A stretch of DNA of 64,000 nt, taken from contig OY761556.1 in NCBI GenBank assembly GCA_963664705.1, positions 2,080,001-2,144,000 of the forward strand, given 5' to 3'. The translations under genes were made by a program, and so were the position numbers. Position 1 is the stretch's first letter. Each line of letters opens with the position of its first letter. Under the pieces are notes generated by a model. It was not told where the DNA came from. It did not search any database and saw nothing but the letters and a program-made list of their open reading frames with translations. This stretch comes from Acidobacteriota bacterium (lineage in GTDB: Bacteria > Acidobacteriota > UBA6911). Shown piece by piece: positions 54,170 to 64,000 of the stretch.

Positions 54170-54179
54170 CGATCGGAAC

Positions 54180-54228
54180 ACGTTGAACGTTTAACGTTGG
54201 ACGTTGGACGTTGGACGTTAAACGTTCA
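54180..54228. repeat. Heptamer (ACGTTNN)x7 forming a 14-bp perfect inverted repeat; probable bidirectional terminator-like element
   Basis: tgaacgtttaacgt (54184-54197) and acgttaaacgttca (54215-54228), between convergent genes. Confidence 0.75.
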
Positions 54229-54247
54229 GCGTGGGACAGTGGATTTT

Positions 54248-56611: not shown

Positions 56612-58537
56612 TTATTCATTTTTATCCATGTCGACATACTCGGCATCGATGACTTCATCTTCCTTTTTGTCTGAGCCCGGCTTTGGTCCGCCGGCCTGCT
56701 CAGAGCCCGGCCCTCCGTGAGGGGGCGCCTGGCTCGCGGTCTTTTGGTACATAATCTCCGCAAGCCGATGGGACGCTTTGGTGAGTTCCTCGGCAGCCGT
56801 GTTCAGATCCGAAGCCTCCGACGATCCTTCCAGTACGCCCTTTGCCTTGGAGAGCGCCGCATCCAACGATCCGGCATCCGCGTCCGAGATCTTGTCCCGG
56901 TTCTCTTTCAGGATCTTTTCCGTGTTGTAGATCAAACTGTCCAGCTTGTTCTTGGCTTCGATCTTTTCCTTGTTCTTCTGATCCTCGTCCGCATGGGATT
57001 GAGCATCCTGGGTCATCTTATCAATCTCATCCTTGCTCAAACCGCTCGAAGCCGTAATCGTGATTTTCTGTTCCTTGCTGGTAGCCAGATCCTTGGCCGA
57101 AACATTCACAATACCATTGGCATCGATGTCAAAGGTCACCTCAACCTGGGGCACGCCCCGAGGCGCGGGAGGAATTCCCACCAAATGGAATTTCCCAAGG
57201 GTTCGGTTGTCTCTCGCCATGGCGCGCTCACCCTGGAGAACGTGAATTTCAACGGAGGTCTGATTATCGGCCGCCGTCGAAAAAATCTCCGACTTCCTCG
57301 TGGGAATCGTGGTGTTTCTGTCAATCAGCTTAGTGAAAACACCCCCGAGGGTCTCGATACCAAGAGACAGCGGGGTTACGTCAAGCAACAGCAGGTCTTT
57401 GACGTCTCCGGCCAGAACGCCGGCCTGGATCGCGGCGCCGACCGCCACAACCTCATCCGGATTCACGCCCTTGTGCGGCTCTTTTCCAAAATACTCTTTC
57501 ACCATCTGCTGCACGCGCGGGATACGCGTCGACCCGCCCACGAGCACCACTTCATCAATATCTCCGGGCTTCATGCCGGCATCGGAAAGCGCCTGCCGAA
57601 GCGGAGCGATAGTCCGCTGGAGAATATCTTCAACCATTTGTTCAAACTTTGACCTTGAAAGCCTCATGTTTAAATGCTTTGGTCCCGAAGCATCCGCTGT
57701 GATAAACGGCAGGTTGATCTCCGTTTCCATAACGGTGGAGAGCTCCATTTTTGCCTTTTCAGCCGCTTCGCGCAGCCGCTGCAAAGCCATCTTGTCCTTT
57801 GAAAGATCGATACCCTGATCCTTTTTGAAATCCTCGATGATCCAGTCCATCAGGCGCTGATCGATGTTGTCGCCGCCGAGGTGGGTATCCCCGTTGGTTG
57901 ACTTAACCTCAACCACGCCTTCCCCTACTTCAAGGATCGAAATGTCGAAGGTGCCACCGCCGAAATCAAATACGGCGATTGTCTCATCCTTCTTCTTGTC
58001 CAGACCGTAGGCCAGTGCGGCCGCGGTCGGCTCATTGACAATACGCACTATCTCCATGCCGGCAATCTTTCCAGCATCCTTCGTGGCCTGCCGCTGGCTG
58101 TCATTGAAGTAGGCCGGAACGGTAATGACCGCTTTTTCCACCTTTTCTCCAAGGTATTCCTCAGCCGCCTGGCGCATCTTCTGCAGAATCATGGCCGAAA
58201 TCTCAGGCGGGGTATACGCCCGATCTCCCATTTTTACCTGAGCATCGGAATTGGGACCGGAAACCACCTTGTATGGCACCAGCTTAACCTCTTCTCCGAC
58301 CTCCCCGGTCTTTCGCCCCATGAAGCGTTTGATCGAAAAAATCGTATTCTCCGGATTGGTAACCGCCTGTCTCTTGGCAACCTGCCCGACAAAACGCTCG
58401 TTGTTCTTTCCCACGGCCACAACGGACGGAGTGAGCCGGCCCCCTTCTGGATTGGTGATAACCTTGGGCTCTCCGCCCTCCATAACCGCAACCACGGAGT
58501 TTGTCGTACCAAGGTCAATTCCGATAATCTTACCCAT
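56612..58537 (-). CDS. dnaK: Chaperone DnaK
   Basis: [43 protein letters not shown]. Confidence 0.98.
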
Positions 58538-58628
58538 TTCTTTCCTCCTAAAAGAATCGCACCCGTATTGTGTAAAGGTGAATCATTAGTGCAGATCTCA
58601 TAAACGCCTTTTGTCTTAGCGCGTATGT

Positions 58629-58658
58629 TATATAGAATCTGAGTGTAGCATTGTCAAG
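58629..58658 (-). promoter_or_regulatory. dnaK promoter overlapped by a HAIR-like HspR operator
   Basis: Minus strand TTGACA-N17-TATATA(AC); TCTGAGT-N7-TGTCAAG (58638-58658) versus HAIR consensus CTTGAGT-N7-ACTCAAG. Confidence 0.65.
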
Positions 58659-58698
58659 CTGTCGATTAAGATTCTGAGCAAGGAATCAGGAGCGCTCT

Positions 58699-59181
58699 CA
58701 ATTGTGGCTCAATTGTGGTCAATTGTGGACACCCACTGATTTTTTCTCAGTTTTTGAGTGGAAACTGGGGCCGGGAATGAAGGGAAATGAAGGGCTGGCG
58801 GGCATGCCCTGGATTAAGCTAAAAATCGCGCTACGTGGAAATTTGTGTCTGTCTTCTGACTCCTGTCTCCTGACTTCTATCTCCTTGCCCGCAAACGCTA
58901 TTTCTTCAGCGCCGGATCCAGTGGAATAGAAAAGGGCCCGAGAGCTTTGGGCAATTGTGGACACCCACTGATTTTTTCTCAATTTGTGAGTGGAAACTAG
59001 CACCGGGAATGAAGGGAAATGAAGGGCTGGTGGGTATGCCCTGGATTAAGCTAAAAATCTCACTGCGCGGAAATTCGTGTCTATCTTCTGACTCCTGTCT
59101 CCTGACTTCTATCTCCTTGCCCGGAAACGCTATTTCTTCAGCGCCGGATCCAGTGGAATAGAAAAGGGCCCGAGGGCTTTG
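58699..59181. repeat. Tandem duplication with 232-bp period (58720-58949 and 58952-59181) preceded by CAATTGTGG stutters
   Basis: Aligned by eye, about 15 substitutions; includes the last 52 nt of the gene at 59130..59756. Confidence 0.93.
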
Positions 59182-59756
59182 CGTGTCCCCTCTTCTTCCA
59201 GTTTAGGAATGTATAGGGTACTTCCAGCAAAGAAGTCGTCCTTCGGTTCCGGAGTGAAGAAAAAAAGGAAACCGTCCGCCACTGTTTCGGGGTCGACGAG
59301 TCGGTTTGTCAATTCCTTGCTGGTAAAATCGGAGAGAGGGGATCCCACTTTGGTTGAAGTCGACTGGTCGCGGGACTTCATTTTAGGGAGCTTGCTAACC
59401 AGCCCAGCCCGGACAACATCCTCGACTACGACGGTGGCGGGTGTTGTATATAGCTGCTTGCCCGCGGCGGTAATCAGGACAACATTCCGCGTCCGGACAT
59501 TAAAAAAGCTCTGGGATCCGTTCCGAATGATGACGTGAACAGGAAAATAGCCGCGCGAGTTCAGGTTCTTTACATCGAAGGCGGTGAAGGATTTATTGTC
59601 GTCGGTGTAGGGATCGGCGGCAATGGCAACACCGCCCAGCTCCGCTCTTGCCGGATAGCTCTCGATCGGCTTCACGGCAACCGTTTTGACCTGGTAATCC
59701 GCAAAGAGCGCAAGCGCCCCAAAAACAGCAAACGCAATGGCTAGATGGATTTTCAT
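59130..59756 (-). CDS. Secreted hypothetical protein (paralog of 4502..5155)
   Basis: Signal peptide; YPA..E.GGVAIAADP, RGYFPVHVIIRN, GFLFF. Confidence 0.8.
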   Translation of the reverse strand: MKIHLAIAFAVFGALALFADYQVKTVAVKPIESYPARAELGGVAIAADPYTDDNKSFTAFDVKNLNSRGYFPVHVIIRNGSQSFFNVRTRNVVLITAAGKQLYTTPATVVVEDVVRAGLVSKLPKMKSRDQSTSTKVGSPLSDFTSKELTNRLVDPETVADGFLFFFTPEPKDDFFAGSTLYIPKLEEEGTRKALGPFSIPLDPALKK

Positions 59757-59816
59757 ACCGCGTCATAATAGCACAAACCGAAAGTCAAAGCCCCTTCCGT
59801 CAACATTCTCCGACTT

Positions 59817-62045
59817 CTACTTCCGTAATTTATCCCCGGAGGCTTCCTGTTTCATCTGCTCTAAAAGCTCGTCCGCCTCGTGAGTTTCCAGGGCTGATTC
59901 CAGTCGCCGCAGGGCTACGCGCACGACGTCCCGATGATGCAGCTTGTAATCAAGACCTTTGCCGGTGAGATTCAGCCACAGTTTATGCAGCAATTCCACA
60001 TCTTCCGGCCACAAGCGCGGTGGATGCGGCCCCAAGTTAAAGAACATCTGTTTCCCGGAGCTCTCGTCGAGGATTTCCAGCGATAATTGCGGTCTGGGAG
60101 CCGGCAAGCGTTCCCAGGCATCTCCAAATGCCTTGGCCTGCTGAGAAGCTGTCATCTTGGCGGATAATCCCATGACGACCAGGCTCGATTTCAGCCGCTG
60201 AGCGACTTCAACGATAGCCCGGTTGTAGTCACGTCCCGGAACGACCAAAAGTTCCACGTGTTTCCCGGCCTTCTCTGCAACGGACACCACGTGCGTGAAC
60301 AGCTGCGCGATTTTATCCGTAAAGATCTGATCGGTTTCGAGCTCAAATCCGCCGGACCCGTGCTGCGACACACGCTTCACTGTCAACGCCACAACATCCA
60401 GCTTCCGGGTATCTACGCGATCGAGGACACGGATCAGGTGCCGCAGTTCGTACGGATTGCGTACCGCGACAAGAACATTGCCGGGACGAAGCCTGACGGA
60501 TTCCTGGGACAGGATCTCCTGCGTTACCAGGCGGAACTTCTCCAGCTCCCCGCCCTGTCTTGCTTTCCTTTTATTGTAATGCTCGGAAATCGCAAAGATG
60601 GTGTAAATACAGACGGTGAAGGTCAGCCCCCAGATGGTAGCCACCTTTTTTGTAAACAGGTTTGTAATTGCAAATCCGAAGAGCACCAGAGTAATGAGGC
60701 CCAATCCCAACGGCAGCTCTTTTCCGAACAGCTTGAGATTCAGCGGCACCTTCCACTGAGGCTCCTCCGGCTGTTTATAACGCAAAACGAGAACTGCGAG
60801 CCCCTGCAGTGCGAAACTCCAGACAATTCCAAAGGCGTAGGCATCGCCCAACAGTTGGATATTGCCGCGTGTCAAAATAATCGTGACAATCTGCAACCCG
60901 ACAATCATGCTGATAATGCGCGCAGTGGTTCCATACTTTTTATGCGGAGTCCGAAACCAGTCCGGAAGCACACGGTCTTCCGCAACTCGGTTGAGAACAC
61001 CATTGGACCCTACAATTGCCGTGTTCACGGCGCCGGAAAGCAGAATAGTGCCTACAATCACAACGAAGGCATGAAACAACAGACGAATGGGGAGCGGGCC
61101 GACGACATTCATCGCCAGGCCACCGATCAGATTATCAATATAGATATGCACTCGTTCGTTGTCGGGAATGATCATCACCGCAAAAAACGAAACCAGCGTG
61201 GTGAAAACCATGCTGTAGACAAAAATAACAATAGCGGCACGCTTCAGATTCTTGAGCTTGGGAGATGCAATTTCCCGGTTAACCTGGGCCAAGCTTTCCT
61301 CTCCGCTCATCGCAAGGACTGAATGTCCCAACCCGATCATGATGGCAAAAACATATATCTGGGTAAAAAAGCTCCCCTTGAGCCAACCTACAGCCTCGTC
61401 ATTGAAGTGAATGGTGCTCAGGGAAGGAAACGGCACCGGATTATAGCCGCGTTGCAGAATGGTGACGATGCACCAGACGATTAGAATCACGACCATCACG
61501 GAGGTTACCTGCATGATGCGCAGCGCCTTCTGACTTGATTCGTGCATTCCGATTATGTTTTTGCGCCAGAAATAAAGCGTCACGAGAATTGTGAAAAAGG
61601 CTGCAAAATAGGGCGGATTGACTTTGAATCCGGGCGATTTCAAAAGATCCGAGGTCTCATTGATGAGGCCGGCCAGGTACAGGCCGGCACTGACTCCGCT
61701 GATGGGCCCGGTCAAGATGTAGTCGAACATCAGAGCGGAAACCGAGACCTTGGCCAGCGTCCCACCCAAGGCTTCATATACCACGCGGTATACGCCGCCC
61801 CGCACGAACATGCTGCAGGCCTCGATATATACAATTCGGACCGCCGACGCAAAAAGCATGATCCCAAGGATGAACCAGGGCGCGGATTTGCCAAGGTATC
61901 CTTCAGAAATACCGGCGGCATAATAGGCCGAGGAACCCAAATCACACAGCACTATAGCCGCCGCTCTCCAGAAGGAAATGAACGACAGCATGACCGTGGT
62001 TGCAACAACTACTTTATTTACACTCGCATCGTCTCGTGCGCTCAT
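59817..62045 (-). CDS. APC-family permease with cytoplasmic C-terminal domain
   Basis: DLGSSAYY, GGVY, DYILTGPIS, SGEES, about 12 TM segments, then a soluble USP-like region. Confidence 0.88.
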   Translation of the reverse strand: MSARDDASVNKVVVATTVMLSFISFWRAAAIVLCDLGSSAYYAAGISEGYLGKSAPWFILGIMLFASAVRIVYIEACSMFVRGGVYRVVYEALGGTLAKVSVSALMFDYILTGPISGVSAGLYLAGLINETSDLLKSPGFKVNPPYFAAFFTILVTLYFWRKNIIGMHESSQKALRIMQVTSVMVVILIVWCIVTILQRGYNPVPFPSLSTIHFNDEAVGWLKGSFFTQIYVFAIMIGLGHSVLAMSGEESLAQVNREIASPKLKNLKRAAIVIFVYSMVFTTLVSFFAVMIIPDNERVHIYIDNLIGGLAMNVVGPLPIRLLFHAFVVIVGTILLSGAVNTAIVGSNGVLNRVAEDRVLPDWFRTPHKKYGTTARIISMIVGLQIVTIILTRGNIQLLGDAYAFGIVWSFALQGLAVLVLRYKQPEEPQWKVPLNLKLFGKELPLGLGLITLVLFGFAITNLFTKKVATIWGLTFTVCIYTIFAISEHYNKRKARQGGELEKFRLVTQEILSQESVRLRPGNVLVAVRNPYELRHLIRVLDRVDTRKLDVVALTVKRVSQHGSGGFELETDQIFTDKIAQLFTHVVSVAEKAGKHVELLVVPGRDYNRAIVEVAQRLKSSLVVMGLSAKMTASQQAKAFGDAWERLPAPRPQLSLEILDESSGKQMFFNLGPHPPRLWPEDVELLHKLWLNLTGKGLDYKLHHRDVVRVALRRLESALETHEADELLEQMKQEASGDKLRK

Positions 62046-62198
62046 AGCTATCCCGTAAGCAAAAGAGCCATGATTGTACCACTGAATGCCCTAAGTTTTA
62101 ATTGCCGGGTTCACAAATAAATCGATGATTGCAAAATGACTGCTAAGCGCTTTGGATGATTGATACTGCGGGGATAAACATGGAGTGGAAATGCCAGC

Positions 62199-62280
62199 AC
62201 CGGGAGCGCCGGCGACTCGCCAGCAAGGGTCTTGTGATTGCTTGCATGGTGCCGATGCCGCCGGGACGGCGACGCTCCCG
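62199..62280. repeat. REP/REPIN-like doublet, copy B
   Basis: accgggagcgccggcgactcgcc ... gccgggacggcgacgctcccg imperfect inverted pair, related to 35749-35910. Confidence 0.7.
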
Positions 62281-62289
62281 ATGCTTCAA

Positions 62290-62898
62290 TTACTTGCGTT
62301 TGATTCTGTAAACGTCCGCATATACTCTACGCAAAGGCGCAACGCAGTATTTGTGAATCAATTCCATGAAGTTTGGCGGATCCGAGATCAGCTCCTCCAG
62401 AAATTCGCCATCAACCCCAAACGAGAGGCGAACGATGTCGGCCTTCCCTTCCCGGGTCTCGACTTTGATGCATTGATGCAAGTCATCCGTGAGATGAAAT
62501 ACATCGCAATTTCGGATCTTCTTTACCTTCTTAAATCCTTCGATCGCATTATCGCGATTGGATTGGTAGTAGGTCTCCAACCTGCGTACGAGCTCGCTGT
62601 AATTGAAGTTTGGAACCTTGTTGTTAACACTCGCCTCAAGGATGCAATCGTCATTTGCGGTCATAAGACTGAGACCGTATGTAAAATCAAGATCACCCTT
62701 GTTGAACTTGATCCGATGACCGGTTTCATCGTGAAAGCGCTTCAATTCCTCAGGAACCTGTATATCAGGATTTTCCTTCTTTTTTTCTGCGGTGATGTAG
62801 TAATCGCTGACACTCAGGTACCACTGATCAATGATGGCTTCCAACGATTTATCGATTAACTCAGCAGTTTTTGGTGGGGTTTTTTTCTTTCCAGGCAA
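62290..62898 (-). CDS. Hypothetical protein (202 aa)
   Basis: TTG start with GAGG SD; Lys/Asp/Glu-rich; no motif recognised. Confidence 0.75.
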   Translation of the reverse strand: MPGKKKTPPKTAELIDKSLEAIIDQWYLSVSDYYITAEKKKENPDIQVPEELKRFHDETGHRIKFNKGDLDFTYGLSLMTANDDCILEASVNNKVPNFNYSELVRRLETYYQSNRDNAIEGFKKVKKIRNCDVFHLTDDLHQCIKVETREGKADIVRLSFGVDGEFLEELISDPPNFMELIHKYCVAPLRRVYADVYRIKRK

Positions 62899-63034
62899 CT
62901 GTCTATTCCTCAGATATGATTAACAGAAAAATTACCGCGCCGGCATGAACCGGAATAGTCAGTATAGCACGGAGCTTTTCACTGATGTTAGCATTTCGGC
63001 TTTAAATGGATATTGGTATGTATTCGATAAATAG

Positions 63035-63094
63035 AAAAACCTGGACACCCATGATTTGTTCGTCAAAAACCTGGACACCCACGATTTGTTCGTC
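63035..63094. repeat. 30-bp tandem duplication, probable terminus of the Y1 transposase element
   Basis: aaaaacctggacaccca(t/c)gatttgttcgtc x2, about 220 nt beyond the transposase stop. Confidence 0.85.
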
Positions 63095-63311
63095 TGACCG
63101 AATGAGGAGTTTCGGAAAGGTCTTGGCGGAAATTCCCGACCGATGATTCATGTTGCTGAGGAATACGGGAAGAAAGCTTGTAATGGGCTTAGCTGTTACT
63201 ACTTGAGGCGAGTAAACAAGCCTGTTGCGAGGAGAGATGCGAAGTCTGGAGGGGCGCGTAGTTTAGGTTCGGAATAGATCCTTTTGATCCGGAATGCAAT
63301 TGGCCTTGAGG

Positions 63312-64000
63312 CTATGTAAAAGCAGACCGAGCGGCCGACAAGCCCTTTATCCAATGCCGGTTGAGCCGTCCCGCGAATTCACGCATGTGCGTCAGGCTGC
63401 CGGCGGCCACCTGGAATGCGGAACCAAAATGCGACACTGTTTCAATCCATTCCTTGGGAATAACTCCAATGCGATTCAGGATCGGGGCAAGACGGCTATC
63501 AATGAACCCGCGCTTGTCAGAGCGAATCATGCGTCCCGATCGGTCGACCAAATCAAAATACTCGGCTGTGGATGTGTCGAGGATACCACGCCGGCTCGGG
63601 GTTGATTGAATTGGGGCCAACCAACAGTCTGCAGAATCCCGAAGAGAAGAGCTCGAAGCAGTTCCGGGTGTTGAGGGAGCATTAATCGTGTCATCAGTTT
63701 GACAAGGAGAACAATCGAAAGCCGGGCCCGAATCACTGGGTTGAGGGGCTGGTTGCTGGGACAAGGATTGGCGATGCCAGGCGCGGATACGCTCCTGAAT
63801 GCTGGTGAAGTCGCTGTCTTCGGGAGTGGAGGCAGCGCCGGCCCGAACCATATTCAGATCCACATAGACCAAGCAAGCTGTAATAGCAGAAGCATCCAGA
63901 AGCACCAGGCATTTAAAGCGAGATTCCCAGAAGCGGCCCTTGACCTTATCTTCCTTGTTAGCCTTGCGAGCGATGAATTCACTGAGTTTGGCCACGAACC
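63312..64000 (-). mobile_element. Y1/HUH-superfamily transposase (RAYT/IS200-like), C-terminal part; N-terminus off window
   Basis: WF..LSEFIARKANKED..KGRFWESRFK, CLVYVDLNMVRAG (catalytic Tyr region), SDFTSIQERI, YFDLVDRSGR.IRSDKRG. Confidence 0.88.

Follow-up and report, generated by a model that had tools for sequence, protein, structure and literature searches.

The question raised by this locus is whether a transposase of the Y1/HUH type has left short and long tandem duplications in the DNA around it, and at which signal such copies begin. The window, that is the whole stretch analysed, comprises 64,000 nucleotides of an Acidobacteriota bacterium (assembly GCA_963664705.1, contig OY761556.1, positions 2,080,001 to 2,144,000) and ends within the gene of such a transposase; a short word beside this gene reappears at a 232-bp duplication. 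According to the original prediction, the transposase acts in trans on dispersed copies of the word and copies variable lengths of adjacent host DNA in tandem. The underlying observation was confirmed and its interpretation was supported in part. In the reading preferred here, to which a probability of roughly 0.6 is assigned, the word is the inverted end of a multi-copy Y1/HUH element of TnpA-Y1 subclass 2.3 and of its miniature derivatives, and the tandem copies would arise by nick-primed copying and rejoining.

The duplications that had been noticed in the window are all present (Table 1). The two 232-bp units differ at 16 positions and adjoin without shared letters at the junction; the limits 58716-58947, which were returned by an automated repeat search, reflect chance extension. 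The local stutter consists of CAATTGTGG three times, at 58699, 58710 and 58720, and the 30-nt pair (inner copy 63065-63094) contains one mismatch. As had been claimed, all four copies of the word mark duplication junctions, each lying 7-8 nt inside the start of a copy. Assembly was checked with Logan contigs of the likely source sample, a single sample that bears on the assembly and not on generality. These short-read contigs cross the 232-bp junction with 0 differences over 58913-59113; they likewise cover the stutter (58300-58881) and the two 30-mers without differences, and on this ground an assembly artefact was rejected.

Table 1. Coordinates (window numbering) of the features at the two word loci and of the adjoining genes.
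Feature	Position	Strand	Remarks
Stutter	58699..58719	+	outer edge of the word, copied in part twice (9-11 nt each: CAATTGTGG + 1-2 nt)
Outer copy of 232-bp duplication	58720..58951	+	starts 7 nt before GGACACCCA (58727-58735)
Duplicated host-gene 3' tail	58898..58951	-	17 codons + stop (54 nt)
Inner copy of 232-bp duplication	58952..59183	+	word 58959-58967, then about 30 nt resembling a decayed mini-element
Conserved host gene of unknown function	59130..59756	-	208 aa; tail copied
Outer 30-nt copy of element right end	63035..63064	+	starts 8 nt before GGACACCCA (63043-63051)
Element right end and 3' non-coding part	63065..63311	+	word 63073-63081; 99% identical in two other genomic copies
HUH/Y1 transposase gene, 3' two-thirds	63312..64000	-	full gene at genome 2144415-2143312, 367 aa

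The word is best read as AAWYST-GGACACCCA, with conservation before GGACACCCA stopping at about -6/-7. Its conserved extension lies on the opposite side from the one given in the original prediction. AAWYST-GGACACCCA occurs 52 times in the genome and in some number in 26 of 29 congeners, and its reversed control gave no match. Re-copies on the outer side were found at 35 of 117 TGGGTGTCC sites, as compared with 43 of the 3859 control sites obtained with 60 shuffled words; on the inner side the count was 6/117, and 27 single-base variants of the word gave 0-3 re-copies per word. Because shuffled words, the inner side and single-base variants all give few re-copies, the enrichment of duplications at the word is not due to chance. 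Loci were counted besides sites, because copying itself makes new word sites: re-copies are carried by 13/19 element ends, 12/24 distant non-coding loci and 0/35 coding loci, and by none of the 36 chance word sites in coding DNA. The predicted genome-wide enrichment of the word at duplication junctions was therefore found, also far from transposase genes, and word sites are a real hotspot for one-sided tandem duplications across the genome.

These copies have a fixed start and a variable end. In 26 of the 35 nearest copies in the own genome the start lies at -7 to -9 from GGACACCCA, with variable 3' ends; in relatives the same holds for 25/34 nearest copies (78 sites; controls, 8/2319 sites). 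Most copies are 10-40 nt and rarer ones 80-230 nt long, in agreement with the varied lengths that had been proposed, and anchored copies of 83-116 nt are present at four loci of relatives (L058, L072, L075 and L022). Copying of DNA outside the element end was rejected, since the copies run inward, from the word into the element. The term flank copying was accordingly abandoned: the 30-mer is the element's own end, equal to the ends of the other two family-A copies of the element at 30/30 and 29/30 positions, and the 10-mer is the edge of the word. Among 88 distinct junctions, 27 are flush, 38 contain extra letters and 6 share at least 3 letters; junctions being mostly flush or with extra letters, end-joining fits better than slippage.

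The element to which the word belongs is 1.43 kb long and is represented by 10 genomic copies, namely three of family A and six full and one partial of family B. Family A copies are mutually 99.0-99.2% identical over 1432 nt (about 1% divergence), and family B includes pairs at 99.7% and 99.9% identity. In all nine full copies each end bears the word, which is oriented outward as TGGGTGTCC; the left terminal word of the window's element lies, together with its own stutter, at genome 2144496-2144530. At relatives' loci with homologs of 41-72% identity the word was found at at least one end in 23/23 and at both ends in 15, in line with the earlier assignment of the word to the ends of the transposase's element, and among more distant homologs (25-36% identity) five hits are without the word and the sixth locus is a fragment. 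The orthologous site is without the element in 24/24 relatives (flanks of 268-1501 nt). Near-identical dispersed copies and the empty orthologous site together argue that the element moves as a unit.

Mini-derivatives, consisting of inverted word pairs of 36-144 nt, are also present in the genome. For a comparison of flanks, 19 inverted word pairs from the own genome and 18 from relatives were used, and no short target duplication of constant length was found in either set. Four of the 19 own pairs, and none of the 18 in relatives, sit within long direct repeats resembling very long target duplications (G000:C1:2287515-2289169; 4447237-4447546; 4483450-4484400; 1320092-1320552). A perfect repeat of 59 bp flanks one full element, and more diverged repeats of about 100-300 bp flank minis. 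The 477-nt partial element (G000:C1:4158783-4159301) consists of the left end plus 130 codons and abuts another word of the same direction at the predicted nick position.

The transposase gene starts beyond the window edge (genome 2144415, equivalent to window position 64415). Its product contains NHVH at 70-73, FWE at 162-164, YVDLN at 184-188 and a TS motif (T204-S205); these motifs are conserved across 150 homologs, as are H71, H73, Y184 and N188, and residue 189 is M, with P in 114 of the 150. The spacing from H73 to Y184 is 111 aa and the length of 367 aa compares with a homolog median of 357. The structure model (predicted local distance difference test score, pLDDT, 90.6) matches TnpA-REP 4ER8 best (Foldseek E 3e-4; VIA Z 12.7, root-mean-square deviation 2.7 over 159 residues), followed by IS608 TnpA, and PDB sequence searches with the protein found no relative. 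PF01797 was detected in 62/120 alignment members and was below cut-off in the window's transposase. Pfam scans matched no helix-turn-helix (HTH) family, the C-terminal part not being folded alone. By the motifs of Table 1 of the classification of Quentin et al. (2018, PMC6006769; cited, like the other papers below, from the portion of text available to us), in which subclass 2.3 has NHYH/WE/YVDLNP, a HuH-to-Y distance of about 110 aa and a proximal TS motif, the protein is assigned to TnpA-Y1 subclass 2.3. The family comprises 1140 clusters at 50% identity (E below 1e-30). Just past the window, at genome 2144400-2144480, the ribosome site and the start codon of the transposase gene are predicted to base-pair with a tract upstream of them in a hairpin. 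Many relatives give a like prediction (9 of the 23 loci folded have z below -2), which recalls translationally repressed insertion sequence (IS) genes.

Several known systems share parts of this layout. With subclass 2.3 the transposase shares NHxH, WE, YVDLN and TS, the long H-to-Y spacing, a long protein and several copies per genome; in the available part of that account, however, class 2 has no REP-like (repetitive extragenic palindrome) flanking structure and no mobility evidence, whereas the element described here has defined inverted ends, 99% identical dispersed copies, minis and one-sided duplications (PMC6006769). As in TIRtrons (TIRYT; Di Nocera et al. 2013, PMC3733652), a gene like that of REP-associated tyrosine transposases lies between terminal inverted repeats (TIRs), and repeats are dispersed as singles, dimers and groups; the mini inverted word pairs resemble the TIR dimers of that paper. 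The word, TGGGTGTCC, departs from the TIRtron consensus GGGGWSAS, which some TIRs also lack, and most TIRtrons are of subclass 2.1, which has an HTH at the C-terminus; the text available describes no duplications with a fixed start for them (PMC3733652). The layout thus appears TIRtron-like without the GGGGWSAS consensus. REPtrons and bacterial interspersed mosaic elements (BIMEs) share the fold, with 4ER8 as the best match, but in the portions available REPs are described as hairpins with a GTAG foot and with cleavage at CT over varied distances, and their gene as a single copy that is not mobile as a unit (Ton-Hoang et al. 2012, PMC3333891; Messing et al., PMC3479197). Here, in contrast, a linear word without a right-end hairpin, a narrow start window and 10 copies, some of them 99% identical, were found. 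IS200/IS605 elements have a short TnpA with YxxxQ and lack terminal inverted repeats, as opposed to YVDLN, 367 aa and inverted terminal words; of their subterminal hairpins at both ends, the right end here has none, folding like its shuffles, and the left-end hairpin lies over the ribosome site. IS91-, ISCR- and Helitron-type one-ended rolling-circle elements have distinct ori and ter ends, and the DNA that they capture is moved elsewhere. A fixed start, a variable end and capture of DNA beyond the element are shared with these, but here the same word with stutters stands at both ends and the copies stay in tandem. Ends, motifs and copy number thus rule out an IS200/IS605, REPtron or IS91 identity. 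No paper was found that names the word or one-sided copies; the word could stand in Figure 9 of PMC3733652 or in the supplements to the two classification papers.

The mechanism proposed here would carry the BIME amplification model, as already published, over to TIRtron-like ends. At its nick a Y1 enzyme generates a free 3'-OH together with a 5'-phosphotyrosine link, which a second 3'-OH is able to resolve (PMC3333891, PMC3479197). In the BIME model for TnpA-REP, a tandem unit is added when the strand is nicked, the primer is extended and the Tyr-5'P end is attacked, and the capture of flanking gene parts was foreseen by its authors (PMC3333891, Fig. 7B for the model). To describe the process as neither IS transposition nor REPIN replication was consequently an overstatement, as nick-primed tandem amplification with flank capture had, in the part of PMC3333891 available, already been proposed. 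In the case of the present element, the enzyme would nick the GGACACCCA strand 7-9 nt before GGACACCCA. From the free 3' end a host polymerase would copy inward, past the word and on over distances that vary, after which the new 3' end would be joined to the 5' end held by the enzyme. Such a sequence of steps would yield a tandem copy with a fixed start, a variable end and no microhomology. Most runs would end within 10-40 nt, repeating the element end alone, and rarer ones would extend over 80-230 nt. The kept H-u-H, Y184 and N188 and the TnpA-REP-like fold were counted in favour of this mechanism; the nick, the strand and the joining step are inferred.

The 232-bp unit is the only one with clear host coding DNA. 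Relatives with the same gene order have a gap of 206-212 nt without word or duplication at this place, as against 596 nt here. The approximately 30 nt that follow the word match the mini-element profile weakly (E 0.44). Of 12 relatives, 3 have an intact inverted pair of a variant word (GGACATCCA) at the corresponding position next to the dnaK promoter, and 9 lack it; on these two grounds a decayed mini-element probably occupies this site upstream of dnaK. The variant-word pairs (L003, L007 and L016, upstream of dnaK in G011, G016 and G020) are stuttered in two of the three cases. The 232-bp copy would then be a long run from the left arm of this mini-element into the tail of the next gene, made before the arrival of the transposase copy that is now 4.6 kb away. 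Its copies differ by 6.9%, compared with about 1% among family-A elements, so the duplication is, by divergence, the older of the two. The hexamer before the word also differs (AATTGT at the 232-bp site, AAACCT in family A), and among 14 distant word loci this one, at 4.6 kb, is simply the closest, the others lying 8-458 kb from the window's transposase. Because of these three points the nearby transposase, named as the maker of the copy in the original prediction, is unsupported in that role. An inverted near-word with one mismatch at the far junction (59180-59188) was considered as a stop for the copy and not adopted, because it is ancestral coding sequence and the junction falls inside it.

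Several observations weigh against nick-primed copying. A background junction comparison (62 cases) did not discriminate. In the scan of contigs from unrelated genomes, whose figures cover the 80 word-matching loci listed, 76 matches are without an anchored copy; the other four are all labelled Acidobacteria, and one of the 80 loci has a transposase hit. Neither a new duplication event nor a circular or empty-site junction was seen in the short-read data, which consist of contigs only. The outer 30-mer has the allele of the distant copy at 2993886, the 477-nt partial element differs by 3-4 mismatches from distant copies and by 21 from the full copy 2 kb away, and the mini-element match at the 232-bp site is weak. 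Furthermore, 15 of 18 long non-coding tandem duplications in the genome are without the word, for which reason the word was rejected as a general junction marker of long duplications, and the two that hold it besides the 232-bp unit (1320202 and 1489217) extend past the predicted start.

Some of these points would suit a different explanation, in which repeated transposition has left the stacks behind as footprints: elements, be they whole, partial or mini, would enter or leave at existing words, and many of the partial copies would come from other donor sites instead of being copied in place. The 99-99.9% identical copies at unrelated sites, the empty site in all 24 relatives, the match of the outer 30-mer and the 477-nt partial copy to distant donors, and the four inverted pairs inside long direct repeats, one of them perfect over 59 bp, all speak for it. 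It is nevertheless considered unlikely: the template of the 232-bp unit was local, since the adjacent gene's tail is included in it, the stutters repeat site-specific outer hexamers, a constant short target duplication is lacking in the inverted pairs, and the 30-mer allele is explicable by one transition.

It is also conceivable that the short stutters are enzyme-linked and that the 232-bp copy belongs to a general class of long intergenic duplications, with the word at its junction by chance or as a secondary hotspot effect. The 15 word-free loci (e.g. 3262363, 5193577, 5547943 and 5929678) are non-coding, 130-400 bp long and mostly contain 6-9-nt tandem repeats, as does the 232-bp unit, which moreover is old. 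However, the flush 232-bp junction lies at -7, which is where the 10-mers start too; given a word in the unit, a junction within a 3-nt window has a chance of about 1% (3/232, our own estimate). The word occurs in 3 of the 18 long-duplication loci (14.4 kb in total) compared with about 0.25 expected by chance (117 sites/6.9 Mb, likewise our own estimate), and the anchored 83-116-nt copies in relatives also argue against this explanation, which is regarded as rather improbable. An origin without the enzyme, be it through assembly error or through slippage of the polymerase on an A/T-rich motif, is largely refuted and very improbable, as the size of the short units (9-12 nt, within the slippage range) is outweighed by the absence of stutters at the 36 coding chance sites and their near absence at single-base variants, by junctions mostly without microhomology and by the bridging short-read contigs.

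Further observations concern the neighbourhood of the element and of the host gene. An inversion affects a 3-kb block that runs from window position 63035 to about genome 2146110 (L229) and contains the element, a PEP-CTERM gene, and tRNA-Ala along with the tRNA promoter. Between the same neighbouring genes, 8/8 relatives have tRNA-Ala on the plus strand, as opposed to the minus strand here, and one inversion breakpoint falls within about 50 nt of the duplicated element end. PEP-CTERM-like genes adjoin two element copies (G000:C1:2144662-2145276; about 4157400-4158170) and tRNA-like sequences adjoin three (copies at 374763, 1304577 and 4155755). The gene at 59130-59756 is co-directional with dnaK here and in 2 of 12 relatives, and opposite in 10. 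An inverted array of ACGTTGA-type heptamers is located at window 54179-54243, a repeat type that recurs in the genome.

Taken further, and only tentatively, subclass 2.3 Y1 enzymes could be word-directed one-sided duplicators that act in trans on any copy of the 15-nt word and write 10 to several hundred bases, including parts of host genes; the same 5'-end transfer would serve to mobilise their own element, would leave behind target repeats that are long and variable, and would invert adjacent DNA. HUH transposition would then have a new mode, in which two origins are equivalent. Added by the present case are the long copy with a host gene tail, the near-identical dispersed copies together with an empty site, the 3-kb inversion and the long repeats at element ends. 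For subclass 2.3, which has no solved member and for which the available part of its classification gives no known DNA site or proof of mobility (PMC6006769), the genome supplies a site, a strand and a predicted cut position for a very large family. The predicted cut site makes the activity of the enzyme, and with it the long-standing BIME amplification model, open to an oligonucleotide assay. If the long run-on copies are real, such elements would reshape intergenic DNA and duplicate gene tails beside promoters such as that of dnaK.

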